From positions 32,001 to 96,000 of the IMG/VR virus record IMGVR_UViG_3300028048_000068: a DNA stretch of 64,000 nucleotides; one strand, 5' to 3'. Positions 1-58,364 of the stretch are shown here, piece by piece. The notes under the pieces are model-generated. The model worked only from the letters and a program-made list of their open reading frames with translations. It ran no database searches and was not told where the DNA came from. Position numbers and translations under genes: made by a program. This DNA is from a virus. Its lineage: Duplodnaviria > Caudoviricetes. How positions within the stretch are numbered: position 1 is the stretch's first letter; every line of letters starts with the position of its first letter.

Positions 1-8
1 TATAATCC

Positions 9-34
9 AAAAAAAAGTGGGGATATACCCCACT
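9..34 (-). terminator. Rho-independent terminator after 45..398
   Basis: AGTGGGG-TATAT-CCCCACT hairpin followed by a T-run on the minus strand. Confidence 0.75.
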
Positions 35-44
35 CAACCGATAA

Positions 45-398
45 CTACTTATCGTGGACTTCCGCACGCTTGCGTCTGATTTCCTCATCACGCTTACGCT
101 TGCGTTCCTTTTCTTCGGCTTTCTCTTTTGCCTTGCGTTCCTTTTCCGCAAGGTTGTGGACGTAGTCCTCTGCGATGGCGTAACCATCGTAAGGCTCAAG
201 TCCCTTGTTTGCACCCGTAGGCACTTTGAAGTTGATAACGATGAAGTCCTCGTTACCTTCGCAACCAACACAAGGGATTGCGATTTCATTGGACTTTACT
301 CGTAAAACTTCTTCGCCACTTTCGTAGAGAAACTGCGAAACCTTTTCGAGGAAGTTAGTTCTGATTAACTCACGTTCTACTTTTCTTGATACTGCCAT
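45..398 (-). CDS. Hypothetical early protein with charged C-terminal helix; paralog of 5163..5522
   Basis: RBS AGGTAGGTG and own TTGACA/TATAAT promoter; strong similarity to 5163..5522 (shared EEVLRVKSNEIAIP.VGCEGNEDFIV...KVPTGANKG.EPYDGY). Confidence 0.85.
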   Translation of the reverse strand: MAVSRKVERELIRTNFLEKVSQFLYESGEEVLRVKSNEIAIPCVGCEGNEDFIVINFKVPTGANKGLEPYDGYAIAEDYVHNLAEKERKAKEKAEEKERKRKRDEEIRRKRAEVHDK

Positions 399-445
399 AA
401 GACACCTACCTTTCTTTTATCTCTTTATCTTACAATAGAATTATA

Positions 446-610
446 TCACTCGTTGATATACTTGTCAAGCGATTTTTTAAAATCTCTGCGAAATTTTTTA
501 TGCTGTTCTTTTTTATCACTGCGGATAGAGTTAAGGCGTGCGTGCTCACAATAATAGTGGCGTGCAAATTTATCTTCAAAAGTTTCTTTTTTGTATGCGT
601 TGCGTCTCAT
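446..610 (-). CDS. Small basic hypothetical protein, 54 aa (MRRNAYKKETFEDKFARHYYCEH...)
   Basis: Read manually (below ORF-track cutoff); RBS AAGGAGGT, upstream promoter. Confidence 0.7.
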   Translation of the reverse strand: MRRNAYKKETFEDKFARHYYCEHARLNSIRSDKKEQHKKFRRDFKKSLDKYINE

Positions 611-735
611 TGGCTTACCTCCTTACAATATAATTATACTGATATTTTGAGATAATTCAAGTTCTTTAAAAAGTACAAGATTTAGGAAAGTTTGTCTTGA
701 CTAACTCGCGCGGCGACCCGGGCCAGAAAAGTTTG

Positions 736-753
736 TTGTTAATTTATTAACAA
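736..753. promoter_or_regulatory. Rex-type operator TTGTTAA-TTTA-TTAACAA (representative copy)
   Basis: Exact match to the clostridial Rex consensus TTGTTAA-N4-TTAACAA; other copies at 1099, 1895, 2208, 3741, 4239, 5067, 7639, 7753, 7788. Confidence 0.7.
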
Positions 754-769
754 GCGACCCGGGCACGCA

Positions 770-818
770 CGAACATATGTTCGTATGGACCGGCCGCGAA
801 TGTGCGAACATATGTTCG
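770..818. promoter_or_regulatory. Two LexA (SOS/Cheo) boxes CGAACATATGTTCG at 770-783 and 805-818 (representative copies)
   Basis: Firmicute LexA consensus CGAAC-N4-GTTCG; other copies at 1930, 2888, 3780, 5102, 5140, 5824, 5864, 6311, 6654, 7773 and ~7842. Confidence 0.75.
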
Positions 819-841
819 TTTTCGTGTAAATAAAAAAAGGA

Positions 842-1030
842 CTATTCGTCCTCTTCTTCATACCATATCTTTTTTATTGTTAAGTGGTCAAGTAAATCTG
901 TTGCATCATGTATGATATAGTCTGCTACGCACTCGTTAATCATTTCCATATCATCATTTTCAAAATCTTCCATACTTTCTGCCCAACAAGTTAAATCGAA
1001 ATCAATTGTAAGTTCAATATGTCTAACCAT
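842..1030 (-). CDS. Small acidic hypothetical protein
   Basis: RBS AAGGAGA, own promoter. Confidence 0.75.
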   Translation of the reverse strand: MVRHIELTIDFDLTCWAESMEDFENDDMEMINECVADYIIHDATDLLDHLTIKKIWYEEEDE

Positions 1031-1160
1031 TTATTTTCTCCTTTCTTTATCTAATATAATTATACTTATTTACTTTTGTTTGTCAATACCTTTTTTAAAA
1101 GTTATTTTTTTCACAAACTTTGGACCGGCCCGCGGTTGACGATAACAAAGACGTGGTAAA

Positions 1161-1802
1161 TTACCACATCTTTGTTTCGAAGTTAAATCCGTCTAACTTT
1201 TCACACTCAAGCAAAATTTTGTATTCAATTTCGCTATCTGAAAGTGCCGTATGTTCTTCGACAAATTCATTGTCAAAGAAATAACGAGCGACTATTTCTG
1301 TGGTATATCTGTTGGCGTTGTTCTGTGTCAGATAACCATTAGACTTGCAAAACTCTCTATATGTTTTATCTTTCTTCAATACGTTGCGAGAGAGTGCGAG
1401 AATATCGTGAAATTCTGTGCCATAAGGGAAGAAATATCTATACTTTGAGGAAGTGATATATCTCTGTGTAGTTGCGAGTGAACAATAATCAAAACGGCAA
1501 TTATACGCATAAACTTTTGTGATGTTGTTTTCTTTCATTATATGGCGAAGTGTCCACATTATGTTTCTGAAAGAAGTTAGAGTTCTCGAACCATTTTTTA
1601 TTTCTTTCCAATATATTGGGATTTTCTCTGCAAAATATGCCGAAGCCATAAGTTCTTTATCGCAGAAAACATCTGCATTTACGAACGAATGTTTGGAATA
1701 GATTGTTCCATTGTAGTCTGCGACTATAAAACCGCAATCATATACAAGTGCGTCATCGAGTGAATTTGTTGTTTCCGTATCTATTATGAGTATCTTTTCC
1801 AT
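1161..1802 (-). CDS. DEDDh 3'-5' exonuclease (DnaQ-like)
   Basis: ExoI IIDTET, ExoII AYNCRFD, ExoIII HTALSD. Confidence 0.85.
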   Translation of the reverse strand: MEKILIIDTETTNSLDDALVYDCGFIVADYNGTIYSKHSFVNADVFCDKELMASAYFAEKIPIYWKEIKNGSRTLTSFRNIMWTLRHIMKENNITKVYAYNCRFDYCSLATTQRYITSSKYRYFFPYGTEFHDILALSRNVLKKDKTYREFCKSNGYLTQNNANRYTTEIVARYFFDNEFVEEHTALSDSEIEYKILLECEKLDGFNFETKMW

Positions 1803-1950
1803 TTTGTTTTTTCCTTTCTCTTGATTACAATATGATTATAAAGGATTTGTTTTAGGAAGTCAACCCTTTTTTATGTTTTTATATCGAAACAATTGTGTTA
1901 ATTTTTTAACAAGGCGGCCCGGGCAAAACCGAACGAGTGTTCGGCTTAGT

Positions 1951-2136
1951 TTAATCAAACTCAACATAATTATCTTCGTCTAATTGATATTCTTCAACCC
2001 ATACTTGTGAATTATTATAACCAATACCACCATTGCGATTAATTTCATCTCTTTGAAATTCTGCCATTACTTTTGAACGAGAACCCCCAAGAATAACAAC
2101 GTTATCAAGTACGCCCATAACTATATAAAGTGTCAT
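1951..2136 (-). CDS. Small hypothetical protein (MTLYIV...VEEYQLD type)
   Basis: RBS AAGGAGA before ATG at 2136; own promoter. Confidence 0.7.
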   Translation of the reverse strand: MTLYIVMGVLDNVVILGGSRSKVMAEFQRDEINRNGGIGYNNSQVWVEEYQLDEDNYVEFD

Positions 2137-2272
2137 TTTTATTTTCTCCTTTCCTTTGATATATACATTATAAACTAACATATTTATAAAGTCAAGAACT
2201 TTTTAAAAAGTTAATTTTTTAACAATCGGCGACCCGGGCGAACTTGACGCATAAAATATATGCGTCAATTCG

Positions 2273-2458
2273 TTAGTCGATTTCCTTTATAAATTCGTCT
2301 CTTTCCCATTTGAAAAAACTATTGATTAAAAATCTACAATCACAACAATCACATACTGCAATAGATTTTTTGATTTCTTCTGTTTCGGTATATGCATCTT
2401 CATCAATAATATCCTCGATGGAATAATCTGTACTGTTACATTTAGGACATTTAACCAT
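2273..2458 (-). CDS. Small zinc-ribbon protein
   Basis: CPKC...CDCC; RBS AAGGAGA. Confidence 0.75.
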   Translation of the reverse strand: MVKCPKCNSTDYSIEDIIDEDAYTETEEIKKSIAVCDCCDCRFLINSFFKWERDEFIKEID

Positions 2459-2475
2459 TTTTTATTATCTCCTTT

Positions 2476-2619
2476 CTATAAAATATGTTCATAAGTCATA
2501 TCATATTCATTACTATTTTGGTTGAGTTCTTTTAAAAGTGTTTGGGCGTCATTTTCATTTATAAATATCCAAAATATCCCTGTATCTTCTGTATGGTAAA
2601 CTATATAAACACCATTCAT
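2476..2619 (-). CDS. Small hypothetical protein, 47 aa (MNGVYIVYHTEDTG...)
   Basis: Read manually; RBS AAGGAGA; operon-like spacing. Confidence 0.65.
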   Translation of the reverse strand: MNGVYIVYHTEDTGIFWIFINENDAQTLLKELNQNSNEYDMTYEHIL

Positions 2620-2621
2620 TT

Positions 2622-2762
2622 TTAATTCTCCTTTCTAATATAAACTTTAACAATACGATAATGTTTTGAATTTAAATTACTATATTTCATATAAGTATTA
2701 TAAAAAGAATATGAGCGATATATAATTTTATGAGTGCGTCTATGTTCGATTATAAATTCCAT
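2622..2762 (-). CDS. Small basic hypothetical protein (MEFIIEHRRTHK...)
   Basis: RBS AAGGAG before ATG at 2762; own promoter. Confidence 0.65.
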   Translation of the reverse strand: MEFIIEHRRTHKIIYRSYSFYNTYMKYSNLNSKHYRIVKVYIRKEN

Positions 2763-2914
2763 TGTATTACTCCTTTCCATTACTCCTTTCTTTTGATACC
2801 TAATTATAACAATAATTTTAAATTCTGTCAACACTTTTTTATGTACTAAAATCCGTACAATCGCGCCCGGTCGTGCCCGGGCCCGCGCGAACATACGTTC
2901 GATTTATGAGTACG

Positions 2915-2937
2915 AAAAAACGGACTTGCGTCCGTTT
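2915..2937 (-). terminator. Terminator after the tRNA-like RNA and its trailer
   Basis: AAACGGAC-GCAA-GTCCGTTTTTT on the minus strand. Confidence 0.75.
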
Positions 2938-2973
2938 CTTCTGAAAGGAGGTGAAAACAATGACTCATAAAAG

Positions 2974-3053
2974 TGGTGGAGTAGACGAAGATTCGAACTT
3001 CGTTCGCTATGCCCTTGGGAGGGATATTCATAGTGGACACCTTGCCCTACCCC
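2974..3053 (-). ncRNA. 80-nt tRNA-like RNA with alanine identity (tmRNA tRNA-like-domain architecture, no canonical anticodon arm)
   Basis: GGGGTAG/CTACTCC acceptor stem with G3:U70, discriminator A plus encoded CCA; T-arm CGAAG-TTCGAAT-CTTCG; 13-nt D-loop-like segment GGCAAGGTGTCCA. Confidence 0.7.
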
Positions 3054-3095
3054 ATAAGGTTGTGGTTTTAAGGGATAACCACAAACCCTTTTGTA

Positions 3096-3425
3096 TTAAC
3101 CGAGAAAGTAACCTTTCTGCGTTCCTTTTCCCTTAACCTTTACATCGACAACCTTTACATCCTCGACTTTCTTGGCGAGTGCAGAAGCCTTGTTTACGGA
3201 AATTCCGCAGAGTTCCGCAATCTTGCTTGCGAGCATTGGCTCATCTGTAAGCACTCTCGAAATTGCTTCGATTATTGGTGCGTTAGCAATCTGTGTCTTG
3301 CTTGGACGCTCTGCCCTCTTGGCGTTGCGCACGTCGAGTTTCTCGATTGCTTCTGTGGCGAAAGTAACCATATCCTCTGTGATAGTTCCGTTGATAACTG
3401 CGTTGTAGAATTCTCTCTGTGTCAT
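3096..3425 (-). CDS. Putative winged-helix protein; paralog of 8717..9064
   Basis: MTQREFYNAVINGTITED...ASKIAELCGISVNKASALA...VKVKGKGTQKGYF; RBS AAAGGA. Confidence 0.8.
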   Translation of the reverse strand: MTQREFYNAVINGTITEDMVTFATEAIEKLDVRNAKRAERPSKTQIANAPIIEAISRVLTDEPMLASKIAELCGISVNKASALAKKVEDVKVVDVKVKGKGTQKGYFLG

Positions 3426-3468
3426 AGTACATTTTCCTTTCTTTTTTAACTCTTTAACTTGTGTCTTT

Positions 3469-3728
3469 ATTATAACTGATTTGTTTGGGTTTGTCAAGAC
3501 TTTTTTAGAACTTTTTTAATTTTTTATTCTGTTCTTTTCTATTCCTCTTGACAATTATATTGTAGCACACTTTTTAGTTTGTGTCAATATCTTTTTTATG
3601 TTTTTTTATGTTTTTCTCGCTTATACTCGCGAGGTCAAGGGAAAGGTGTTTCTGTGTCCACGCGTTGTTTCTGTTTCTTCCTTTCCCTCTGACAATTATA
3701 GTATAGCAAAAATTTAATAATCTGTCAA
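3469..3728 (-). promoter_or_regulatory. Three tandem sigmaA promoters
   Basis: TTGACA-17-TATACT (3728-3700), TTGACA-17-TACAAT (3587-3559), TTGACA-17-TATAAT (3497-3469). Confidence 0.8.
3616..3693 (-). ncRNA. Candidate small structured RNA or leader with A-rich loop
   Basis: Starts right after a promoter; 13-14 bp stem closing a 33-nt loop with three GAAAC motifs; second hairpin; no credible ORF. Confidence 0.45.
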
Positions 3729-3798
3729 CACTTTTTTCATTAGTTATTTTTTTAACAATCGCGCCCGGGCCAACGAGTGCGAACACTCGTTCGCACCC

Positions 3799-4140
3799 TT
3801 ATGCAATTGCATTAGCAACAACCTTGAGAAGTACATTTTTATACCACTCTGCATCGTGTACAATTTTGTATACATTTGCCTTATATGGTATCTGTGCCGT
3901 TACATATTTATTATGATGCCATATTTCTTTTTCAAAAGTTCTGTCAACAGTACCAACAATTTCTGCGATACCTCTGCGCACAAGCATCATCATAAGCTGT
4001 GAATTATGGGAAGCAACATACCATTTTTCGCCAAGTTCAGAAGCCGTAAATTCTTTATCAAGGAAACCATTCTTTTCAATTGCGTTGAGTGCCATTCTAA
4101 CATATCTCATATCATATTTCAGTTCTCTAATTGTTCTCAT
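3799..4140 (-). CDS. Hypothetical protein, possibly winged-helix-like
   Basis: RBS GAGGT before ATG at 4140; own promoter. Confidence 0.75.
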   Translation of the reverse strand: MRTIRELKYDMRYVRMALNAIEKNGFLDKEFTASELGEKWYVASHNSQLMMMLVRRGIAEIVGTVDRTFEKEIWHHNKYVTAQIPYKANVYKIVHDAEWYKNVLLKVVANAIA

Positions 4141-4296
4141 TGTGTACCTCACTTTCATTTTTTTATTTACTATCTCTTGACAATGTAAGTATAGCAAATA
4201 TATATGTATGTGTCAATACTTTTTTAAAAATAATTTAAAAGTTATTTTTTTAACAATTGACCGGCCGCGCGTATAAATATACAAAAAAGAGATTGT

Positions 4297-4734
4297 TTAT
4301 GCAATCTCTTTCAGTATCTCGATAATGTTATCCACATCGAACGCTGTACCTTTCCATTCTTTTCTGTTTGGTTCTTCATCATCGAAAAGTATGCCGTTTA
4401 TATCGTCAACCATCGTTGATTTTGGTGTTCCGTACTTTCCAATTTTAATTTCATCGAAGTGTACGCTTTTCAGATGATTGTTAAGCCATTCGATTTTAGC
4501 GTTGGTTACTTTTATATCGTAACTTTCGCTTGCGTTCTTTGCTAACCAAGAAACGATACCGATTTTATGTCCGTTTCTCTGTGCCTTGTTAAGAAGTCTT
4601 GCGAGTGTTGCAAGTCTTACAAGTGGTTCTGCGTCTGTGTATGGGCTTGCATCTTCATTTCTGAGTTTTGGGAGCCAATTTTCTACTGCGTAGAGATTAG
4701 CGATTGTTCCGTCCATATCGAAGTAAATTGTCAT
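4297..4734 (-). CDS. HAD-superfamily phosphatase (5'(3')-deoxyribonucleotidase-like)
   Basis: Motif I FDMDGT, conserved K, motif IV LFDD. Confidence 0.85.
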   Translation of the reverse strand: MTIYFDMDGTIANLYAVENWLPKLRNEDASPYTDAEPLVRLATLARLLNKAQRNGHKIGIVSWLAKNASESYDIKVTNAKIEWLNNHLKSVHFDEIKIGKYGTPKSTMVDDINGILFDDEEPNRKEWKGTAFDVDNIIEILKEIA

Positions 4735-4801
4735 TTTGTTTTTCCTCTCTTTCTTTCTTTGTATCTATATTATAGACTACTTTTGAGAGTTTGTCAATAG
4801 T

Positions 4802-4978
4802 TTATTTTGTTTTTTTATGTTTTTTAGCAATATCTCCAAGCATAAATATTATATCCATTGTTTTGACAATATCATATTTCTTATGTATTTCGCCAAAACA
4901 TTTAGGGCATACAATAAAATCTACATATCCAAAAGACTCATCCCAACTAGTTTCTCTTCTACAAATAGCACACTTCAT
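4802..4978 (-). CDS. Small zinc-finger protein
   Basis: CAIC...CPKC; RBS AAGGAGA. Confidence 0.7.
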   Translation of the reverse strand: MKCAICRRETSWDESFGYVDFIVCPKCFGEIHKKYDIVKTMDIIFMLGDIAKKHKKTK

Positions 4979-5133
4979 TTTGTTTTCTCCTTTCTTATTA
5001 CAATACAATTATAAACTATGAATAATCGGAAGTCAACCCCTTTTTATGTTTTTCTTTGTATTTATGTTGTTAATTTTTTCACAAGTGCGCCCGGGCCATG
5101 TCAAACATATGTTCGTTTTAATTTTGGGAATAA

Positions 5134-5159
5134 AAAAGACGAACTTTCGTTCGTCTTTT
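5134..5159 (-). terminator. Terminator whose stem is itself a LexA-type box
   Basis: AAAAGACGAAC-TTTC-GTTCGTCTTTT; CGAAC-N4-GTTCG at 5140-5153. Confidence 0.65.
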
Positions 5160-5162
5160 CGT

Positions 5163-5522
5163 CTATTCTCCTTTTTCGGAAATTACTTTCTTTTTTTCTC
5201 TAATCTCTTTGTCTTTTCGGATTTTTTCCGCTTTCTTTTTTTCGGCTTCAATTTTTTTCTGTTCTTTTTCGGCAACTTTCATTTCATAATCTTGTGCCAT
5301 TTCATAACCGTCATATGGTTCTGTGCCTTTGTTTGCACCCGTTGGAACTTTTACGGTTACAACGATGAAATCTTCGTTGCCCTCGCACCCTACAACGGGA
5401 ATTGCAATCTCATTAGATTTTACTCTCAAAACTTCTTCATCTTTTTCCAAGAAATTATCAATAATTTTCTGAAGATAATCGTTTCTTAAAATTTCTCTTT
5501 CTACTTTTCGGGATATTGCCAT
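5163..5522 (-). CDS. Hypothetical early protein; paralog of 45..398
   Basis: High similarity to 45..398; RBS AAGGAGA. Confidence 0.85.
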   Translation of the reverse strand: MAISRKVEREILRNDYLQKIIDNFLEKDEEVLRVKSNEIAIPVVGCEGNEDFIVVTVKVPTGANKGTEPYDGYEMAQDYEMKVAEKEQKKIEAEKKKAEKIRKDKEIREKKKVISEKGE

Positions 5523-5598
5523 TGTCAAATTCTCCTTTCTTTTACTTTCTATAATTATTATAGCAAAATTTTAAAAATTTGTCAAATTATTTTTTGTT

Positions 5599-5742
5599 CT
5601 ATTTTAGGAACAAAGGGATATAAAACATAATAGGAATTGAAAGAAGAAGTAAAAATCCAAAAATTCCTCTTTCGGTTTTTTCCTCAAATACTGCACAAGT
5701 AATAGCGAATATGAACCAAAGTATAAGTATAATCCAAAGCAT
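5599..5742 (-). CDS. Small membrane protein with two TM helices
   Basis: Two hydrophobic stretches; RBS AAGGAGA; own promoter. Confidence 0.7.
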   Translation of the reverse strand: MLWIILILWFIFAITCAVFEEKTERGIFGFLLLLSIPIMFYIPLFLK

Positions 5743-5880
5743 TGTTTTTATCTCCTTTCTTTTGATATACACATTATACAATAGATATAGAGGAAAGTCA
5801 ACCACCTAAACGAACATTAAGAACGAACGTATGTTCGTCTTTGCGCGCCCGGGCGACTCGGCGCGAACGTATGTTCGCAC

Positions 5881-6042
5881 CTACATCCATCTATCCATAT
5901 TGCGTTTAGTTACCTTTTCTCTTTTCTTTCTTTTATCTGTATAAACACCTGTTCTAAAAGGTATATCCTGTATTGGCTTAGTCTGCCTTACTATGTCAAT
6001 ACCCTTTATTGTTCCTACTGTTATATTCTTCTTCTTTGACAT
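5881..6042 (-). CDS. Small very basic protein, 53 aa (MSKKKNITVG...PFRTGVYTDKRKKREKVTKRNMDRWM)
   Basis: Read manually; RBS GGAGG; starts 2 nt after the stop of 6045..6197. Confidence 0.65.
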   Translation of the reverse strand: MSKKKNITVGTIKGIDIVRQTKPIQDIPFRTGVYTDKRKKREKVTKRNMDRWM

Positions 6043-6044
6043 CT

Positions 6045-6197
6045 CTATGCCCTCCCAAGATACTCAAGTCTGCGTGGCACTGTGACAATGTACCATCTCA
6101 TCACATCGGATTTACATTTACGCATCCATCTATTGCGGTCGTTCTCCTTAATGATACCGAGAACTATCATTCTGTTTACCATTTCCATCTTTGTCAT
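6045..6197 (-). CDS. Small basic hypothetical protein, 50 aa (MTKMEMVNRMIVLG...)
   Basis: Read manually; RBS GAGAGGT; upstream promoter. Confidence 0.65.
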   Translation of the reverse strand: MTKMEMVNRMIVLGIIKENDRNRWMRKCKSDVMRWYIVTVPRRLEYLGRA

Positions 6198-6333
6198 TTG
6201 TCTTTACCTCTCTTTCTTTATCTGTCTATATTATAGTCGATGCAGAAAACAATTGCAATACCTTTTTATGTTTTTCTTTGTATTTTTATACACTCACGGC
6301 CCGGGCCGACCGAACATATGTTTAATTAGAAAG

Positions 6334-6533
6334 AATAAAAATGAGGGCTTGCGCCCTCTGCGGTACCTCTACAGCGATGTATGCCCGTTTTGCCTATTCC
6401 AACCGCTACGGGATTTGGTTCACACTTATATACCGCAACGCTGAGACCCTTGCGGTGGTGGGACTTTATCAGCAAGACTTATCCGTTCTGTGTAGAACTC
6501 CCTCTTCGGTTCGGCTTGCTTCCCTCACCTTGT
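6334..6533 (-). ncRNA. Candidate ~200-nt structured non-coding RNA
   Basis: Own promoter TTGACA-17-TATAAT (6568-6540); GC-richer than flanks; several hairpins; terminator GAGGGC-GCAA-GCCCTC; no RBS-led ORF. Confidence 0.6.
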
Positions 6534-6701
6534 ATCTATATTATAGTATGAATTTGATTATTTGTCAACACTTTATTTTGTTTTTCTTTGTATTTATTTC
6601 GTTAATAAATTATTAACGAAGTCGCGCCCGGTCAATTTTAACCCGGACCGGCGCGAACGTACGTTTGATGAAGAAATAAAAAAATAAGCCTTTCGGCTTA
6701 T

Positions 6702-6890
6702 TTACTGAAGTTCAAATTCTTCGATTTCATAAAGAGGAATTCCTTCTTCATCTTCGCAGAACCAAGGATGCTCATATTCCTGATTTTCTGCTATCCACTT
6801 TTCTGCATCTTCTCTTGAGGCATATACTGCCTGTGCTTCTCTGCAACCATATTCATCATCTACCATCATGTTTACTACGTATACCTTCAT
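6702..6890 (-). CDS. Small acidic hypothetical protein (MKVYVV...YEIEEFEL type)
   Basis: RBS AAGGAGA; terminator at 6678-6703. Confidence 0.8.
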   Translation of the reverse strand: MKVYVVNMMVDDEYGCREAQAVYASREDAEKWIAENQEYEHPWFCEDEEGIPLYEIEEFELQ

Positions 6891-7014
6891 TGTTCTATCT
6901 CCTTTCAATCTCTTAGCTTGTCTATATTATACTCTTTATAGCTTGCATTGTCAAGCTCTATCTTGTACTTCGTTTGATATAATCAGTTCGACTCGAAGGT
7001 CGAGGGTCGAGGGT

Positions 7015-7485
7015 CTAGTGCAGACCCTCGATTACCCTTATCAGCTGAGTCTCGGTGGTGAATGTGGCTCTTTCAAACTTGAGCTGATATGTGATACCGT
7101 TCACTATCATATCCGGACCTTCCCACCACTTCAGTGTGTCCTTTTCCCAAGTCTGTCCGAAGTATTCAGCCATTACATATTCAAAATCGTGGCCTTTATT
7201 GCTACCATATACAGGTGTCAGCATTTCGTGAACTTCTTCGAAGTGTTCAATGGTGCAGACCTTGAAAGCACCAGCCTTAATCATAGCCTTTTTCTCGTCG
7301 GCTGTAGGTCTAAAGCGCATTGATACAGCGCCGCCCTTGCTCTTAGCGGCTCTATCGAGCACACAGCCCAGGCCGTTGAACACGCTCTCGTATGCCCATA
7401 CGAAACCATCACGCGCGAACCCGTCAAAATGACGCTCGCATGCTTCGAAAGTCTTGTAATTGTCAACCATAGTTCTAAGTTCCAT
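7015..7485 (-). CDS. Hypothetical protein, possible PD-(D/E)xK-like fold
   Basis: RBS AAGGAGGT, own promoter; GHDFE...GPDMIVNGITYQLK. Confidence 0.7.
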   Translation of the reverse strand: MELRTMVDNYKTFEACERHFDGFARDGFVWAYESVFNGLGCVLDRAAKSKGGAVSMRFRPTADEKKAMIKAGAFKVCTIEHFEEVHEMLTPVYGSNKGHDFEYVMAEYFGQTWEKDTLKWWEGPDMIVNGITYQLKFERATFTTETQLIRVIEGLH

Positions 7486-7813
7486 TTTAGTACCTCCTTG
7501 CTATGGTTAGATTATAAGCCCAACGGCTATGTTTTGTCAATTGAAAAAATCAATAATAATAGCAGAGTATTATTAATAAAATCAATAACACAAAATCAGT
7601 AAAATCTATTGACAAACACATAAAATTGTGATTGGACTTTGTGATATTTTTAACAAGGGATCTCAAAATATTTGAGGCGACCAAAAGAATATTTGTTCTT
7701 TTTTGTTCCCTAAAAATCTTTTTGTTAACCTAAAGAATATTTGTTCGGATTGTTGTTTATTTATTAACAATCCGAATGTATGTTCGCTTGTGAAACTTTT
7801 AACAAGTGGATCC

Positions 7814-7897
7814 CATATGAACATATGAACATATGAACATATAAACATATGTTCGACCATACATACATTAACATATGTTCATATGTTCATATGTTCA
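7814..7897. repeat. Tandem 8-bp GAACATAT repeats arranged as an inverted pair
   Basis: (CATATGAA)3-CATATAAA-CATATGTTCG, then AACATATGTT-(CATATGTT)2-CA. Confidence 0.85.
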
Positions 7898-8085
7898 CTG
7901 ATGAAGAGGCACTCTCATACACGCCCTCGGGCGTTTCCTCTGACGGATCCCGATGGTATGGTTAACAATATGTTCTTCATTAAGTACAAGATTGGTAGTT
8001 GACTTATGCAACCGACGAGAGTACAATCTAACCATCAGATACAGACACAGACCGCAAGGCGGTCATCACAGAGAGGAGACAGACA

Positions 8086-8319
8086 ATGTATAACGACCTT
8101 ATCAGAGAAGCAACAGCAGAAGAAATGGCAATCTATCATAGAGTCGAAGACGTACTCGATACACTGACCGAAGACGAAGAAACACGTTTCATCGAAACCG
8201 TCGGAGACAGAGTATATGACTATACTCGTAGCAAAGCAATTTATCAGAGAGCATACAGACTCGGAAAAAAATACGGTTTCACCGTTGAAGAACTCGAAAC
8301 TTGGTACTGCATCGACTAA
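8086..8319 (+). CDS. Hypothetical protein; the only credible plus-strand gene in the early region
   Basis: Promoter TTGACT-17-TACAAT (~7999-8027), RBS GAGGAG, terminator at 8329-8358. Confidence 0.8.
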   Translation: MYNDLIREATAEEMAIYHRVEDVLDTLTEDEETRFIETVGDRVYDYTRSKAIYQRAYRLGKKYGFTVEELETWYCID

Positions 8320-8376
8320 GTCGAAACAATAAAGTCCCTTATAAGGGACTTTTTTATTGCTTTATTCTCTGACGCT

Positions 8377-8460
8377 AAAATTTGCCCTCTGACGCTCAAA
8401 ACTTAATCAATTGATAGATTATACCATTTCAATAGTTTTGACCGTCAGAGGGCAAAATTT
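8377..8460. repeat. 27-bp near-perfect inverted repeat with ~30-bp spacer
   Basis: AAAATTTGCCCTCTGACGCTCAAAACT ... AGTTTTGACCGTCAGAGGGCAAAATTT. Confidence 0.8.
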
Positions 8461-8716
8461 GACCTGTGAGGGGTATGCCCATGTGAAAGTACACCATAAT
8501 ATCCCGGCCCTGTTTTTATCAATGGCCCTCTCTTTTTTAGAAAAGTAGTACCTAAAACGGTTTTAGATTTTCCGAAAGCAGTTACTTAAACCTACCGCCC
8601 TGGTAGGAATTAAAATCCTAAAATATACCCCGGCTTGCTTATGGGTTAGAGGCCTTTAACTCTCCGGTCAGACCCTATGTCCTGGTACAAAATATCCACG
8701 AAATAAAAAAATAGAC

Positions 8717-9064
8717 CTACACGTAGTAGGCCTTTCTTTTACCTTTATTTTTAACCTTCACATCGCAGCTTTTAATTTTCCCCTCTCGTATAAGGTTCGT
8801 ACAAATAGCAGTGAGCCTTTGACGCGTCAACGTTGAGCCAATTTTCTCCGCCAACTCATCAATTTGAATTGGCTCCTCCGTTAGCGCCTCACAAATTAAT
8901 TCCTCGTAACGCTTATTTTCGACGTAATTTGCACTCTCCTTACTCACTTGATTCGCTCGCGCGCTACGTTCGTCCAGCTTCGCCAATTCAGCCTTGCAGT
9001 CTTCAATTAGCTCTTCCGTAATATTCCCAGCTATAACCGCTTCAAGTCTTTGTCTCCTAGTCAC
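8717..9064 (-). CDS. Putative winged-helix protein; paralog of 3096..3425
   Basis: Shared N-terminal MT.R....AVI.G.ITE and C-terminal VKVK.KG..K.Y. Confidence 0.8.
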   Translation of the reverse strand: MTRRQRLEAVIAGNITEELIEDCKAELAKLDERSARANQVSKESANYVENKRYEELICEALTEEPIQIDELAEKIGSTLTRQRLTAICTNLIREGKIKSCDVKVKNKGKRKAYYV

Positions 9065-9611: not shown

Positions 9612-10931
9612 ATGCAGAATAGACTTAAACTTAATTTTGATTTAGAAACTGCGGCTGAACGAGCACAATTTATTCAAACTTATCTGGTCCAGTTTCCTGA
9701 TTTGACTAGTTCTGAAGCCTCCACAATTGCGGATTATTTGTTATGGGGCAAGGATGGCAGTGGCGCGCCTATAGGTAAGGACACCGGATTGGAAACGCGC
9801 TGGACGAAAACAAACGAAGCTGAATCGCTCGATGCGGTTTTGGAGAATCCTGCCATGAGTAATGCGCAATTGTATACGTTAAATGATGCGGTTGTTTTAA
9901 AAAAGAACAGAGACGTTTTTAATAGAGAAGAAGCAAGAAAAGAAGCACCGGAATTTCTGCGGCCGACCTTTGAGGAACTGTGGAAGACGATTGACGAGAT
10001 TGAGCTAGAGATTAACTTTTATGAAGAGAGGATTGGAAAAAGAGAGAAACCGCCAAGAGATGAGTTAGTTAAGCGTTTTACTGACGAAGAAGTTGAACGT
10101 ATACGCGCGCGAAGCCAAAAACTTAATCAGTATGGATATTTGAAGTTGAGACATAGGATAAGAGAGTTGAGAACAGAACAGTTCACAATTAGAGACTCTT
10201 ACCGCTCAACTTTTAATATAACCCAATCAATCTATGCGCCAAAGCATAGAAGTTTTGTTTTTGACTGCGACGTGGAGGTACTGCCGCTAGGTGTAAAAGA
10301 AGGGGCAACTGGAGATATAGTTTTCGATATAAACTTTGACCCGCGCGCACTCGACGAAGAACAGCTACGTTTGATAAGTAGGTTGGTCTGGAAGAAAAAG
10401 AATTGTCAAAAGCCAAAGAATGAAATTTTTGACTTTAGAGATTTAGAAGCGGTTTATCAGTTGTATTTATTTAAAGAAGAATTTGATGAACGGCTTGAAC
10501 AAGTTAAACTAGACCACATTGTAGAGAACAACTTACGCAACCTACTTGATACACTTGATTTCTATGAACAAATGGCAGACTTAACTGACGTACAGCGTGA
10601 AATTTTGAAGCTAAAAGAACAAAAACAGAAAAACGCAGATATAGCGGGGTATATTAATAAGAAATATGGAAAGAGCTATACTGCGAATTATATAAGTACT
10701 ATATTTAAGCAGAAAATTATAGTGAAGATTAACGAGGCCGCGCAACTACATCAAGATACAATTGAAAATTGTTTTTTCGAAGAGAACTTTAAAAAATGTG
10801 GTTGCTGTGGTAGGATTTTACTTTTAGATGGAAGAAATTGGGTTAAGAAAACCAGAAGTAAAGACGGATTCCAGAGCAGATGTAAAAGATGCGAAAGGGA
10901 ACTCCGAAAAAAGAAAAAGGAGGATGGGTAA
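9612..10931 (+). CDS. Putative phage transcription regulator (sigma region-4-like HTH plus C-terminal Zn finger)
   Basis: LTDVQREILKLK...NADIA...YISTIF; CGCC...CKRC. Confidence 0.55.
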   Translation: MQNRLKLNFDLETAAERAQFIQTYLVQFPDLTSSEASTIADYLLWGKDGSGAPIGKDTGLETRWTKTNEAESLDAVLENPAMSNAQLYTLNDAVVLKKNRDVFNREEARKEAPEFLRPTFEELWKTIDEIELEINFYEERIGKREKPPRDELVKRFTDEEVERIRARSQKLNQYGYLKLRHRIRELRTEQFTIRDSYRSTFNITQSIYAPKHRSFVFDCDVEVLPLGVKEGATGDIVFDINFDPRALDEEQLRLISRLVWKKKNCQKPKNEIFDFRDLEAVYQLYLFKEEFDERLEQVKLDHIVENNLRNLLDTLDFYEQMADLTDVQREILKLKEQKQKNADIAGYINKKYGKSYTANYISTIFKQKIIVKINEAAQLHQDTIENCFFEENFKKCGCCGRILLLDGRNWVKKTRSKDGFQSRCKRCERELRKKKKEDG

Positions 10932-27800: not shown

Positions 27801-30800
27801 TGAAGCGTATGACTCAGCAAAACAAGAAACTTCTGAGTTAGCTGATGCAATTGAGCAAGTTAAAACCAATGAAGATGCGTTTGACGGATTGGTAGTAGGC
27901 ACAGCTGCATTTAATGAACAGCTTGTTAATGCTAATGAGCAAATAATGGAACTTATTAAAAAGTATCCAATGCTTAATGACTATTTAACTACAGATAAGA
28001 ATGGTCTTATGCACATTAGTGGTGAAGGTCTTAATGCGGTTAAAGAATATCAAAAGCAACGTCAAGCTAATGCAAGTGCATTAAATTTAATTCAAACTGC
28101 TGATTTAAATAGTGAAGAATCTCGTCAAAAGGCTCAACAAATGCGTAAGATTAAAGGTACTGATACTACAGAATCTTATAATCAACGCTTAAAAGAAGCT
28201 GATTTAGTCGAACAACAAGCTAAAGCACAACAAGAAATGGCGAAACTAAATGCTGTAAATACAGCTTTAGTTGATAAAGAAATACATAATCGTGAAAAAG
28301 TTTCTGCTATTATGGCAGAACAATATGATGCTCGTAAAAATGCAGTCAATCTTGAGGGTGAATCAATTCATGACTTAAAACAAGAATATGCTGATTTTTA
28401 TGGCTATAAATATGATAAATCTACAAAAAAACTTACTGATGTTGAAGGTAATGAAATTGATGTAGATAAAGATACCATTAAAGATGCAGTTAAAGAAATT
28501 AGGGTTATTACTAATTTCGAGGCAGATGGTAAATCACTTGATAGTATGCTTAATAGCATTGATAGCAAATTTAGCAATGCTTTAGGTGATACTTTTGCAG
28601 AATCTGGAAATTTATTTAGTGATATTATGTCTAATAATATTGATATAGATAGTGATTTATTAGAAAATCTTATCACTAATCCAGATAAATTACAAAGTGC
28701 TGTTGATGCTTTAAGTGAAAAAGAAATAGCTGCAGTACTTGGAGTTAGTGCCGATGCTGTAGCAGAAGCTCCTGATAAATATAAGAATGAATTAACTGAT
28801 AAATTAGCTGAAAAAGCAACCAATATCGCTGAAACTCAAGCTCAGTCTTACGCAGATTTGGCATCGATGCTCGCGCAAACTACTTCTGCTGATGTAAGTC
28901 AATTAATAGATGAAAATGGACAAGCTACCACAAAAGCACAAAAAGCTAATCAACAAGCAATTAAAGAACAATTAGATAAATTAACTACAGAGCAAAAAAA
29001 TACTTTATCATCTATAGGTAATGCTTTATCTGAAGGTGCTGGTGTTGAAACTATGCGTACCTTCATAAAACAAGCAACAGATATTTATACCAAAGGTACA
29101 CAAGAATCTATTACTGCTTTAGATAGCATTATCAAAGATGTTAATTGGAGTAGTCCTACTGCTAGATTAAAAGCATATAATGATATGATTAAGTCAGCAG
29201 ATAAGGATGTTCAAAATTTAGGAAATAGTTTACGTAATTCTAGTGAGTCTTCAAACTTATTAGGAGAAGCTTTTGAAGAATTCTACGATAGTTCAGATTT
29301 TCAAGAAATGGCAGAAAATATGGACAAATTTGCGGATTCTTCAGGTAAGCTTAATGCTTCTTCTATTCAAGAAATGGCTAAAGAGTGCGGTTCGCTCAAT
29401 AATTTACTTGATACTGGCGCCATTTCAGCAGGTGGAGTCGCTGCGGCCCTTAATGCAATGGGCGCAGATGGTAATATTACCATTCTTGATTTAAATGAAA
29501 ATTTACTTAAGTTCTTATCAACTGCAAATCAATTAGAAGATACGTTAGCGGAAGCTCATTCGTTAATTGAAAACTTTGATTGGGGTGTAGATACTGGAGA
29601 GTCAGAAGATTTCGCTAAAGAATCTACTAAAAAATGGAAAGAACTTTATGACAATGGTGAATTTGGTAATCAACAATTAGAAAATTATGCTAAGTTTGTT
29701 CTAGGTCAAGAACGTTGGAATAATGAATTAGAAAAATCTGGCGGTAATATTGAAAAAGCATTAAATAATATGTCTGGAGACATATTAAAATATTCTGATG
29801 GTTTTGAGCAGGCCTGGGTTGATATGGCTAATTCTAGCGCCATTCAAGATGTTCATTATGGTGAAGGTGGAGATATCATTTGGGATACCAAGGGTAAAAC
29901 CACTCAAGAATTAGTAGATTGGCTTGCTGAAACTAGGGGAATTACGCAAGAATGGGCAAAGTTGATGGTTGAAGACTTTGCAAATTATTCTTATGATTTT
30001 AAAACCGAATTAGCCGCTAATGATTTTAATGCTGCTTTAAAAAATGGCGATTACATTACTAGTCGTAAAGGTGCAGATGGCAATATTAATATAACCCAAG
30101 GTGAAATTCAAACACTTGCCGCAGCGCAGAATAAAACAGAGCAAGAAATTACAGCGGCGATAGCCAAATCTGCTGGCATTGCTGAAGATGAATTAAATAT
30201 TATTAAAAATATTGATGAAAAAGGTAATGTTTTAATGGGTACTGGTGACATAGCTTCACTTAATACTCAGTATAGTCAAGCAGAATTAGGCAAAAATACT
30301 ACTGCTTCTTGGATTTCTCAATATGTTGCACAAACTCGTCAAGGCCAAAGTATTGAAGGGTCAACAGATTTAAAGGCTGCCATTAGTGGAGCAATTGCTG
30401 ATGGGTTCCAAGCAGAACAAGCCAATGAAATGGCTCGTACTGAAGCTCTAAAAGCAATTGAAAATGGTGCACAGGTATTTTATGATGGAGTAGAGCTACA
30501 AAAAGAAGATTTAGCTGATTCACAAGCATTTGCTGATAAGATAACTGAAATAACAGAAAACTCACGTTGGAATGCTGTTGGAGAAGCTATTGCTCAAGGA
30601 TATATTTCCTATATTAAAGGTACTGAAAATCCTAATCAGCCTAATGATTCTAATCAAAGCGGCACTAGTGATTGGGAGCCTGCAAGTTATGGTAATAAAG
30701 GTTCTAATTTTACTATTGGAACACCTACAGAAGACCCGAAAGAAGAAGCTCGAAAAGCTGCAAAGGAAAAGTTTGATTCGTGGATACAAGGATTAAAAGA

Positions 30801-33800
30801 GGGAACAAATACACCTACCGAAGACCCTAAAGTTGCTGCAGGTGAAAAATCAAGACAACAATGGTCTGATTTGTGGACTTCAGTTAAACAAGCATTTACT
30901 GAAGGTACCCCTACTGAAGACCCTAAAGTAGAAGCAGCAGAAAAAGCTCGTACAACTTGGAAAAATATTTGGGATGGAGTTAAACAAGCTTTTAATACTC
31001 CAACTTCTACCCCTGAACCTAAACAACCGCAACCACAAAACAATACTGGACAATCAACAGTACAAAATCAAGAAGCTACAGTAACTATACATACTGAAGA
31101 CTCTGAATTAGATGCTACCAAAACTAAAATTGATACTGTAATAGAAGCTGCTTCTAAACCACAAACAGTTACAATTACTGCAAATACAGGAAAATCAACA
31201 GATACAGCATTAACAAGTATAAATAAAATCAAAGACGCTACAAAAGGCAATAATACTATAAATGTTAGCGCCAAGGTTAAAGGTAAAGATGATGTTAATA
31301 ATCTAGGGTCAATAATTACTAATGTAAAACCTAAAACCATCAGTGTTACAGCCAATGTTAGTGGTGCAAGTAAAGTTACTTCTTTAAAAAACGAAATTAG
31401 TAATTTAAAAGACAAAGACGTTTATATTACTACTCATAAGAAAACTGTAAATGATAAACCTAGTGGGGCCAAAGGTATTAACAATCATATTGCTCCACGT
31501 CGAAGTCTATCACTTGGCTCTTTAGCCTCTGGTACTCGTTATGGCAGATTAGGTCCTAAAGGACGTGGTGGTTTAACCCTTACTGGTGAAGAAGGGTTTG
31601 AGATAGCTTGGTTACCAAGTGAAAGTCGTTCAATGATACTCGGCGCTGACGGACCACAGATGATTAGTTTACCATCTGACGCTGTAGTTTATACACATGA
31701 GCAATCTGAAGATATTTTACGGAAACGACAAGAAATTGAAGCGGGTTCTCATGCAGGTAGACATAAAAAAGGTGGCGGTTCAAGTTCGGGTTCAGGCTCT
31801 AAATCTTCCAAAAAAGGAGGAAAGAGTAAAAAGGGTAAATCTAAAAAGAAAAAAGATAAAAAAGATAAAACTCCTACAATTAATAATTGGTCAATTGAAG
31901 AAGCTGTTCAATACAATATTGACCAGTCCCTTGCATCAATAACTGAAGAAATTTCTCTCCGTACCAAAGACATCGAAAAGAATCTCGAAAAAATTGGTAC
32001 GACCTATAATGACATAGTTGGCACAACTCAAGCCCAAATCGCTGCATTAGACCAAGTTAAACAAAAAAACAAAGAACTTCTTGAGTCAAACCAGCGTCAA
32101 CTTGCAGACTATAGAGCACAACAGCAATATGTAAGTTGGACCGATGGTAATGGAGAATCTCAACGTACATTAATTAATATTGGTCAATTCTTAGCTAGTG
32201 ATGGAAAAATCGACTATAATGCAATTCAAAGTTTTGCTGGTGGTAATCGAGCTTTACAAGAGGCCCTCTTTAAAGAGGTAAGCTCTGGTAAGGATATGGC
32301 TGATGGAATGCGCAATGCGCTTAAAGCAATTGCTGATGCTGATCAACAGATTGCAGACCTTGGTAAGAAAATTTCTGAAGCATTCTATCAATGGGAGAAT
32401 GAACTTACTGAAGTATATAGTTTAACAAAACGTATTAATAATGAAGTTTCATTTACAAATAGATTTACTTCTCAAGTAGAACTTGAACTTGCTAAACTTG
32501 GCGCAGGCTTTACTGACACCGCGAAAGCTATTGCAAATACACGAAATGTATTAATACGTAATAATGCTACTATTCAAGCACAAATTAAAAATCAGCAACA
32601 AATGGTTGCTGCTCGTCAGCGAGAACTCGAGGCAGCATTAAGTTATGAGGACGAAGTCAATAAATATAAAAAATTTGAAGCCAAAACCGATTGGGATTCT
32701 GAAGCAACCAAAACTGCGACACTTGAGTGGGCTAAAAATTTAGAAACAGGCGCAAGGCTTGGCTATAAATATGTTGCAGACAGTATTTTTAAAGATATTG
32801 ATGGGTCTATTCAATATCAAATTGATTGGGAAAAATTTAATGCAGATAATGAAGCTAATCCATATTCAAAAGCTGATTATGAAGCAATTAAGAAATATCT
32901 TGATGACCTTGATAGCGCGGCGACAGAGTTTAATAATTCAATTAAAGACCAAACAGACTTCATCAAGCAAACCTATGATGCTCTTAAGGAGTATCAAGAT
33001 TATGTTGCTGATATGGAAGATACTCTTATTAAGGGTGTTGAAGAAGAAATTGAAGAAGCTAAGGATAATGCAAAACAAATCAGTGATTCAATCACTAGCG
33101 CATTAAAAGACTTACTTGATGAGGTTAAGCGTAAACTTGATGAGCGTAGAAAACAAGAAGATAATGCGAAGACCGAAAGAGATATATCGCAAAAACAGCA
33201 ACGTCTTGCTATGCTGCGCGCGGATACCGCGGGCGGACATCAAGTTGAAATTGCACAACTTGAAAAAGAAATTGCTGATTCACAACAATCATATCAAAGA
33301 ACTTTAGAAGATCAATTACTTGATAGATTACAACAACAAGCTGATGAGGCTTCTGAACAAAGAGAGCGCCAAATCGCATTGATGGAAGCTGGTAATCAAA
33401 TTGATGCATCGACCAATAAAGAATTGGTTGACATGTGGCTGAAAGACCCTGAAAAGTATAAGGAAGAAATTAAAGCGGCATGGTTAGAAGCTCAAGGATA
33501 TGATGAGAAAGGTGAAGCTGGACAATATGTACTTGAAAGTCAATTTGAATCTGATTTCGCTCAATTAGTTACTGCCGTTGAGGAGTCAAATTTCAAAGAT
33601 AGTTTTAATGCATTAACAGCTGATACGAATTCACTCGCGGCATTACTTAATGAATTAACCAATGGACAACTTGGCAGAGAAGACGAACTTGCTCATAACA
33701 CTAATGCATTATTAGATGTTACAGATAGAAATACAACTTCTATTTTAACCGAAATGCAGAAGCAAAATTCTGCAGCAATGTTAAAAGCTAAAGGAGCAGA

Positions 33801-57446: not shown

Positions 57447-58364
57447 TTAAAATCCAAGGTCAGCGAATCCATTCTTTGGAGACTGCTGCGGTGCCTGTCT
57501 TGTAGCAGCTCTGGACATATCTCTGTCCTTCTGCTTCTCAAGTCTAATCTTTCTTTCTGCAAGAGCGTTCTGAATCTCTGCATTATCGAAAGCATAATCA
57601 CCCTCAAGTGGCTCCTGCGAACCGCCAGTGATGATAAGGTCACTTCTATTAATGGTTCTTGTCTTCTCAATTGGCTCACCAAAGTCAACTTCCTCGATAA
57701 TTGTCTCAGTTGTTGCAGAGAAATCAAGTCTACCGTTTGCCTTAACAGTATTACCAACTTCCCAATAAGTAGATACTGCGCTGATTACGCCCTCACTCTG
57801 TGCGAACATAGGAACGACATCGACCTTTCCACCATACTGTGGAATAATTGCGTCAATTCTATATCTACCTGTAGCCTCTCCATTTCTATCAATCTCTTCA
57901 CTCTTGTTAGCAACTACAAACTCTGCTGTATAAGTTGCCTCTGGCTTGCACTCAGCCTTGGAAATACGATTGACAAACGAAGCATTAATTCTTGGGAAGG
58001 AAATAAGTCTACCGTCTGCACTATAATACTCGTTCATACGAATACTTGCATTAGTAATACGAACTCTATCTGCGCCATCTTCACCATTGTCAGATGCTGC
58101 GATACTTACATACTCGTCAGCAATTTTCTTAATTGACTCATATGCTGGGTTCGGTGTACCCTTATTTGTCAGCTTCGAAGCAAACATGTGAACCGGAATA
58201 GCCAGTTCCTTTTCTTCTCCACTAATCTTCTGAGTAACCTTAACTGTAATCGAACCGCCAATAGATTCTACTGTCTGTCCATTCTTATTAAATGAACCTG
58301 GCTTAATATCAATTTCAGCGAGAATTCCTTCTATCTTTGCCCTGTTTTCTGCTTGTCTTAACAT
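57447..58364 (-). CDS. Putative single-stranded DNA-binding protein
   Basis: Adjacent to the AAA ATPase; high-expression codons; C-terminal DLGF tail. Confidence 0.65.
   Translation of the reverse strand: MLRQAENRAKIEGILAEIDIKPGSFNKNGQTVESIGGSITVKVTQKISGEEKELAIPVHMFASKLTNKGTPNPAYESIKKIADEYVSIAASDNGEDGADRVRITNASIRMNEYYSADGRLISFPRINASFVNRISKAECKPEATYTAEFVVANKSEEIDRNGEATGRYRIDAIIPQYGGKVDVVPMFAQSEGVISAVSTYWEVGNTVKANGRLDFSATTETIIEEVDFGEPIEKTRTINRSDLIITGGSQEPLEGDYAFDNAEIQNALAERKIRLEKQKDRDMSRAATRQAPQQSPKNGFADLGF

Follow-up and report, generated by a model that had tools for sequence, protein, structure and literature searches.

Which protein, if any, binds a repeated 18-bp palindrome in the early region of the phage record IMGVR_UViG_3300028048_000068? 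The window analyzed here is a stretch of 64,000 nucleotides from this large, rumen-type virus (Duplodnaviria; Caudoviricetes), bases 32,001-96,000 of a complete virus record of 136,627 bp with 36.5% G+C that encodes portal, terminase, a sigma-factor-like protein, NrdD, DnaB, RecJ and topoisomerase II. A first-pass annotation, made from the letters alone, had listed ten sites resembling the operator of Rex, the NADH/NAD+-sensing repressor of Firmicutes, and had proposed that they either tie early transcription to the redox state of the host or titrate Rex. We conclude that the 18-mers are genuine and constitute a conserved operator. The protein that binds it is tentatively assigned as host Rex, the leading candidate, with a phage-encoded binder close behind.

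Rex-like 18-mers in the early region

The early region is transcribed leftward and spans about -1,100 to 7,540 in window coordinates, which are used throughout unless genome positions are named. Between 440 and 7540, its minus strand carries 16 sigma-A-type promoters, each with at least 11 of the 12 consensus letters (TTGACA-17-TATAAT) and with A-rich UP regions. Behind most of them lies a single small open reading frame (ORF) or putative non-coding RNA, and terminators separate several of these units. The region is read from host sigma-A promoters, and its designation as early in the first-pass annotation was borne out. Since strong GGAGG ribosome sites accompany the sigma-A promoters, a Firmicute-type host is indicated, and the phage NrdD points to an anaerobic one. 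No GenBank phage matched the region in a megablast search.

We searched for the pattern TTGTKAA-N4-TTMACAA, counting mismatches against TTGTKAANNNNTTMACAA. All ten sequences that had been listed are present at their positions, and eight of them have at most two mismatches. Three sites are perfect: TTGTTAATTTATTAACAA at 736-753 and TTGTTAATTTTTTCACAA at 5067-5084, both already described as such, and the site at 7788-7805. Those at 1895-1912, 7639-7656 and 7753-7770 have one mismatch, and those at 2208-2225 and 3741-3758 have two. The remaining two, at 1099-1116 (TTGTGAA half intact) and 4239-4256 (one good half), have three mismatches and are better called half-sites.

Six sites lie, as had been reported of several, 12-32 bp upstream of a -35 element. 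The distance is 12 bp for the sites at 1099, 2208 and 3741 (-35 at 1086, 2195 and 3728, respectively), 22 bp for 4239 (-35 at 4216), 30 bp for 5067 (-35 at 5036) and 31 bp for 1895 (-35 at 1863). The other four fall outside this range. The site at 736 lies upstream of the promoter at 660, with 75 bp between it and the -35, the site at 7639 is 98 bp upstream of the -35 at 7540 (a distance that recurs in relatives), and those at 7753 and 7788 are in a divergent control region whose two promoters are both over 200 bp away. The earlier list also lacked an N7-spaced variant, TTCGTTAATAATTTATTAACGAA, at 6599-6621 (29 bp upstream of the -35 at 6568); a variant palindrome, TGTAC-N8-GTACA, at 2841-2860, which occupies the same slot, with a G/C core on one side and the -35 at 2831 on the other, and recurs in relatives; and further 18-mer sites left of the window, at genome positions 31,873-31,938.

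These numbers far exceed chance. The exact pattern occurs three times in the window, compared to 0.02 expected. In the 3.3 kb of AT-rich intergenic DNA within 1-8085, we counted 3, 6, 8 and 13 sites at no more than 0, 1, 2 and 3 mismatches, while dinucleotide-preserving shuffles of the same DNA (n = 300) gave 0, 0.007, 0.28 and 2.1. The observed counts were matched in none of the 300 shuffles. The comparison with an AT-matched background that the first-pass annotation had named as its check therefore came out in favor of enrichment, with 8 sites at up to two mismatches versus 0.28 expected. Across the 136,627-bp genome, all sites with at most one mismatch fall within one stretch of approximately 8 kb (genome 31,921-39,805).

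The 18-mer equals the published Rex operator consensus, both the form TTGTTAANNNNTTAACAA described as "typical in Clostridiaceae" (PMC9600882) and the general consensus TTGTGAANNNNTTCACAA (PMC6391272, PMC3441419). As the first-pass annotation had supposed, no paper that connects Rex boxes with phage promoters came up in literature searches.

Although the sites had been handled as isolated operators, each is one element of a composite promoter module. On the minus strand, the module consists, in order, of a variable palindrome, a G/C core, the Rex-like 18-mer, an A-rich UP element, a near-consensus sigma-A promoter and a small early gene. There are about 20 such promoter-plus-palindrome modules, and they are present at every cassette boundary. 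The variable palindrome is often CGAACATATGTTCG and is elsewhere a terminator hairpin or a different dyad. The G/C core is, for example, GCCCGGGC. One example, CGCGCCCGGGCC at 3760-3771, lies 2 bp from the promoter-distal edge of its 18-mer (the clade-wide mode is 3-7), and the perfect site at 736 has GACCCGGGC cores on both sides. Other cores are at 713-724, 754-764, 1122-1130, 1916-1924, 2875-2883, 5088-5097, 5846-5855, 6298-6307 and 6645-6653. An outer palindrome, CGAAC-N4-GTTCG, which is a LexA/Cheo-box look-alike, occurs at 3780-3793, and others start at 770, 805, 1930, 2888, 5824 and 5864. Because the spacing between elements is variable and the flanks of most modules cannot be aligned with each other, the elements are kept separately rather than as one copied block.

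Conservation and helical phasing of the operator

With the sigma-factor-like protein (gene at 9612-10931, plus strand) as a marker, we collected related loci on 26 viral contigs, at 60-100% identity. Further lineages, in which this protein is 28-44% identical, came from scanning IMG/VR for the pattern. An unbiased count of perfect dyads in the 26 related loci ranked GAACAT-ATGTTC first and TGTTAA-N4-TTAACA second, the latter occurring 53 times in 15 loci. Spacing is strict, as GTTAA-N4-TTAAC was found 309 times versus at most 31 for any other spacing, which indicates a dimeric protein. A logo built from 145 distinct site contexts stops at 18 bp, apart from a G-rich patch 1-8 bp to the promoter-distal side. 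The distal half of the dyad is the better kept, and 92-97% of the spacer letters in these sites are A or T. Both the window and the clade thus carry the 18-bp dyad TTGTKAA-N4-TTMACAA with the A/T-rich spacer expected of a Rex operator.

Five members of the further lineages are complete genomes with terminal repeats, and they have 4-19 sites each, in one cluster, versus 0-1 for a control pattern. One related contig (IMGVR_UViG_3300033463_001124, L060 below) has 31 sites in 12.5 kb. The 18-mer persists in relatives whose core proteins are 25-45% identical, and such constancy is compatible with recognition by a deeply conserved host factor. Phylogenetic footprinting mostly failed because the early regions are mosaic among relatives, with few orthologous stretches and few module regions that have orthologues. 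One alignment worked, and the 18-mer at 1895 and its G/C core are conserved in the related loci aligned to it.

The Enterococcus phages VRE9_2 and EF1, whose portal is 26% identical, have 7 and 5 sites, respectively, versus none for the control. These sites are concentrated in a leftward early array, which is syntenic, and in a divergent control region with GAACATAT-type repeats. Among the EF1/VRE9_2 18-mers are those at positions 123544, 132041 and 132382 of PP680568.1. The good sites in both phages are all TTGTGAA-N4-TTCACAA, the Bacilli-type Rex box, and have no CCGG cores, while about 79% of half-sites in the rumen and gut phages are of the TTGTTAA type. Half-site flavor therefore covaries with host class, being TTGTTAA-rich in rumen and gut phages and only TTGTGAA in EF1 and VRE9_2, in line with the Clostridia and Bacilli forms of the Rex box. 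Since the Enterococcus phages keep the 18-mer without the CCGG cores, we view it as an ancestral, portable element whose flavor tracks the host class. Enterococcus has Rex. One VRE9_2 site, at 123183, lies 11 bp past a TGnTATAAT promoter, which is classical repressor geometry. There was no excess over the control in eight other cultured phages (Bacillus FADO and Thrax1, Brevibacillus Sundance, Lactococcus 949, Staphylococcus SPbeta-like, Mammaliicoccus phi127, Alicyclobacillus KKP_3916 and phAss-1).

Distances from site to promoter, computed after related spacers were clustered, are periodic. From the edge of the site to the -35 they peak at 20, 31, 42, 53, 64, 75, 86 and 98 bp. Fourier power at 11-11.5 bp was 13.5, compared to a null 95th percentile of 5.6, and was reached by none of 2000 random sets. 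The site-to--35 distance thus has a helical period of approximately 11 bp. The promoters behind the sites are strong (40% match 12 of 12 letters) and have an A-rich UP region, so that, as for phi29 p4, a dyad lies upstream of near-consensus sigma-A promoters and on a constant face of the helix. Very likely, the element is a protein operator that acts on the adjacent promoter from one face of the helix. Comparing the strength of promoters with and without sites, as a guide to activation or repression, was abandoned, as the set without sites was full of chance promoter matches.

Could the sequence act with no specific protein, as phased A-tract curvature, an extended UP element or a recombination module like the PeSLs of T4, its likeness to the Rex box being chance? 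The A/T tract at the center of the site is in phase with the A-tracts of the UP region, the early regions of relatives are mosaic, and the modules recur at every cassette boundary. Nonetheless, such an explanation does not account for why the TTGT...ACAA arms are invariant, why the site is a dyad with strict N4 spacing or why arrays occur far from promoters, and in the Enterococcus phages the 18-mer is conserved on its own, without its flanks. We therefore regard it as the least probable of the explanations, and very improbable.

A host factor other than Rex, for example a Crp/Fnr-family regulator serving as a class I-like upstream activator or modulator, would also be consistent with some of these features. 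The Rex-box core is contained in the Crp/Fnr consensus, and the 18-mer accordingly holds a TGTGA-N6-TCACA or TGTTA-N6-TAACA core. Phasing at roughly one turn upstream of the -35 resembles class I geometry as well. Yet Rex is the better match to the conserved AA/TT at positions 6-7 and 12-13 and to the outer TT/AA, near-consensus promoters with UP elements need no activator, and the site centers, at about -56, -64.5 and -75.5 from inferred start sites, miss the class I positions by 3-5 bp. A host binder other than Rex is thus improbable.

Host Rex versus a phage-encoded binder

Tentatively, we take the protein that recognizes the 18-mers as its operators to be a dimeric, sequence-specific DNA binder, most probably the host NADH/NAD+ sensor, Rex. 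Firmicute Rex operators (TTGTGAA-N4-TTCACAA, or TTGTTAA-N4-TTAACAA in Clostridia) share the 18-bp dyad, its A/T spacer and its N4 spacing. A host protein is also favored because the early promoters must work at time zero, when host proteins alone are present.

Evidence from candidate hosts is mixed. The only bacterial assembly found to hold a relative of the phage is a metagenome-assembled genome of the Acutalibacteraceae, G001 (JAZQHA01; 2.3 Mb), in which contigs C16, C85, C91 and C190 are several pieces of a phage 83-92% protein-identical to the one studied here. Rex is present in 47 of 61 sampled genomes of this family. Perfect sites number 0-3 per genome, for a total of 18 versus 5 for the control, and two of the 18 are on short G001 contigs that resemble phage DNA. 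Two Acutalibacteraceae genomes have a perfect site in the interval from rex to adhE, 5-13 bp past the -10 box, which is the textbook Rex arrangement. One of these rex-adhE operators, TTGTTAATTATTTAACAA in genome G040, is found verbatim in phage loci too, and the mixture of T and G at position 5 is the same in the phage sites and in the sampled chromosomal sites of the host family.

If Rex is the binder, infection could proceed as follows. Once the phage DNA has been injected, host RNA polymerase would read the first genes from the near-consensus sigma-A promoters. When NADH is low relative to NAD+, a Rex dimer would bind on a fixed face of the helix, either over the UP element or a little past it, at distances of 12, 20-22, 31 or 42 bp from the -35 on its upstream side, or further helical turns away. 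There it would modulate the early promoters, most likely damping them, either by occupying the DNA on which the alpha subunit docks or by holding polymerase at a promoter that is already very strong. With a rise in NADH, Rex would dissociate, allowing full expression of the early genes. Both the NADH sensitivity of binding and the sign of the effect on transcription are what we infer here. Since the phages carry 3 to about 20 perfect sites versus 0-3 per genome in the sampled bacterial family, replicating phage DNA should in addition soak up Rex and de-repress fermentation genes of the adhE type. In its boldest form, the proposal would be that arrays of perfect Rex boxes serve the whole clade, from phages of rumen Clostridia to EF1 and VRE9, as both sponge and sensor, gating early transcription by NADH/NAD+, stripping Rex from the chromosome and turning on fermentation genes without any phage protein; this we consider unlikely.

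Several observations weigh against Rex. Host Rex operators are found on or after the transcription start of the redox and fermentation genes that they control. Unlike them, the phage sites precede the UP element of early genes, are phased, often stand beside CCGG and can form arrays of up to six. In all, 108 of 127 sites (85%) are upstream of -45 and only 19 are over the promoter or past the start, so that the overlap with core promoter or start expected of a repressing Rex operator is not the rule. The genes downstream are small phage early ORFs that lack redox, fermentation or respiration domains. To our knowledge, helical phasing to the promoter has not been described for Rex operators. CCGG or CCSGG occurs within 14 bp of the edge in 62% of sites, with a mode of 3-7 bp and a background of approximately 4% per side; this coupling is not needed by Rex operators and is absent from the host rex-adhE operators and from the Enterococcus phages. 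Moreover, the slot of the 18-mer can be filled by TGTAC-N8-GTACA or by N7-spaced dyads.

The host link itself cuts the same way. Neither Rex nor LexA was found in G001 or in any of 15 genomes of its genus, and if this link is true, recognition by a host factor fails for the rumen lineage. However, the related phage was connected to G001 by binning alone, and at 2.3 Mb versus 0.9-1.4 Mb the bin is twice the size of its genus mates, making it probably inflated and the link weak. The phage NrdD is no closer to the G001 genus than to the rest of the Acutalibacteraceae. Short DNA matches in that genus, considered as CRISPR spacers, were chance matches.

The Rex-less genus, the tandem arrays of 3-6 sites and the coupling of sites to a lineage-specific CCGG core and to GAAC-N4-GTTC boxes would all be more natural if a phage-encoded dimeric regulator, either a winged-helix early protein or an unrecognized one, bound the 18-mers and shut the early promoters once it had been made. 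Phasing at approximately 11 bp upstream of near-consensus promoters is p4-type geometry rather than that of Rex repression. Such a regulator might trap polymerase via the alpha subunit, as phi29 p4 does at A2c, or it might run a global operator network like that of KorB in RK2. Against this stands the constancy of the 18-mer. Operators of phage regulators usually drift, while this one is unchanged at about 25-45% protein identity and varies only as host Rex predicts, and its exact identity with the consensus of a host global regulator would be a coincidence. The phage encodes no protein recognized as Rex, LexA, ParB or Crp type; a custom hidden Markov model of the Rex winged-helix domain matched none of its ORFs, so that no phage protein resembles the DNA-binding domain of Rex; and PF02195 (ParB family) had no match in the complete phage genome, contrary to what a KorB/ParB-type network would predict. 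A weak Crp-HTH match at 58358-58987 (minus strand) was actually a GIY-YIG/NUMOD1 homing endonuclease within the replication gene block. On balance, a phage-encoded binder is a serious possibility, somewhat less favored than Rex.

A phage-encoded candidate is a very conserved and abundant winged-helix early protein. The gene at 3096-3425 (minus strand) encodes a MarR/ArsR-like protein of 109 amino acids (AF2 pLDDT 95). A second paralog of 115 amino acids, at 8717-9064 (minus strand), adjoins the control region, and a third is at genome positions 30,950-31,290. The family is large (946 clusters), with three copies in this phage and three each in EF1 and VRE9_2. Because three complete relatives retain the sites but have no member of this family, a winged-helix protein is a possible but not a required binder. 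We set it aside as the obligatory one on this ground, and its fold is generic for MarR/ArsR-type proteins without specific likeness to Rex. The first early protein, of 156 amino acids, was also considered, and an Atlas look-up was uninformative.

Related systems, neighboring elements and implications

Other mobile elements share parts of this arrangement. The Bacillus thuringiensis tectivirus GIL01 reportedly uses host LexA together with gp7, a few promoter-overlapping boxes controlling lysogeny. It is likewise a phage without a classical repressor that uses boxes of a host global repressor, and the lineage studied here carries look-alikes of LexA boxes. It differs in that the phage studied here is large and apparently lytic, with many boxes that precede many early promoters, and the factor would be Rex. 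In phi29, p4 is encoded by the phage, recognizes a different sequence and controls the switch among A2c, A2b and A3 from one site pair. An upstream inverted repeat, a fixed helical face and a strong sigma-A promoter are common to both systems, and the outcome of p4 binding depends on promoter strength; here, by contrast, there are dozens of sites, and their sequence is that of a host operator. KorB operators of plasmid RK2 and the stoperators of mycobacteriophage L5 are likewise spread in many copies over a mobile genome at varied distances from promoters. L5 stoperators are asymmetric and inside transcription units, while the phage sites are palindromic and mostly upstream of promoters. A parallel in setting, as opposed to the function of the 18-mer, is the PeSL cassettes of T4-type phages, in which small early ORFs are also bracketed by a promoter-plus-palindrome module within a mosaic early region. 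Those modules are not known to contain an element equal to a host transcription-factor site or a phased upstream dyad, both of which are present here.

The divergent control region (7541-8085) contains three 18-mers, two GAATATTTGTTC boxes and an inverted tandem GAACATAT array at 7813-7894, in which three tandem units stand opposite three inverted copies. An RNA explanation of this array was dropped, as Rfam gave only spurious miRNA-type matches. The control region of VRE9_2 has a similar element, GAACATATATTCATATG, and the "LexA boxes" of the lineage may therefore go back to a phage-specific repeat and not to SOS boxes of the host. No GAAC-N4-GTTC box was found in the stretches fetched from five complete relatives. 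In two complete relatives of 125-130 kb (L097 and L063), it is replaced by a partner repeat, GCTTTAAAGCGTTAAAG, next to GTGCCGGCA.

Some relatives have tandem arrays of the 18-mer. In L060, three sites at 9823-9906 and six at 10648-10835 follow a period of 33-34 bp (18-mer, 6 bp, CCGG, 6 bp), and each array follows closely behind a strong promoter of the opposite strand. In another contig, L014, six Rex-like sites at 8291-8683 repeat every 56 bp, with unique, G+C-richer spacers of 38 bp that contain small hairpins, and the array is placed upstream of the first leftward early gene. We rejected a CRISPR-like explanation of the 56-bp and 34-bp arrays, in which a repeat of only 18 bp alternates with spacers of 15-38 bp.

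Other features of the early region were also recorded. Two proteins of approximately 118 amino acids, encoded at 45-398 and 5163-5522, are diverged paralogs; like the three winged-helix copies, they fit duplication and shuffling of cassettes. Downstream of the perfect promoter at 6568, about 200 nt without an ORF (6330-6540, minus strand) have a G+C content above that of their surroundings and end in a terminator at 6343-6358. This stretch is probably a phage non-coding RNA, and Rfam had no match for it. A second non-coding stretch, at 2950-3100 (minus strand), follows the winged-helix gene at 3096-3425. It closes with a T-arm-like GAAGTTCGAATCTTC, then an acceptor-like terminus bearing CCA, and last a terminator, and neither ARAGORN nor Rfam made a call within it. 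Outside the window, at genome positions 30,100-30,650 (window -1,900 to -1,350), dense ACGTATACGTATA-type repeats lie between rightward genes and the early array and possibly mark an origin or a genome end.

Phages borrow host regulators such as LexA, CRP and IHF, and Rex is the main redox sensor of Gram-positive anaerobes. If Rex binds the 18-mers, widespread gut and rumen phages would time or tune their first genes by the NADH/NAD+ ratio of the host, and operator DNA alone could rewire host fermentation. If a phage protein binds them instead, it would share the specificity of Rex and might act on the host Rex regulon. With either binder, these phages offer a clean, conserved and helically phased upstream operator, for which EF1 and VRE9_2 provide a cultured, genetically tractable test system.

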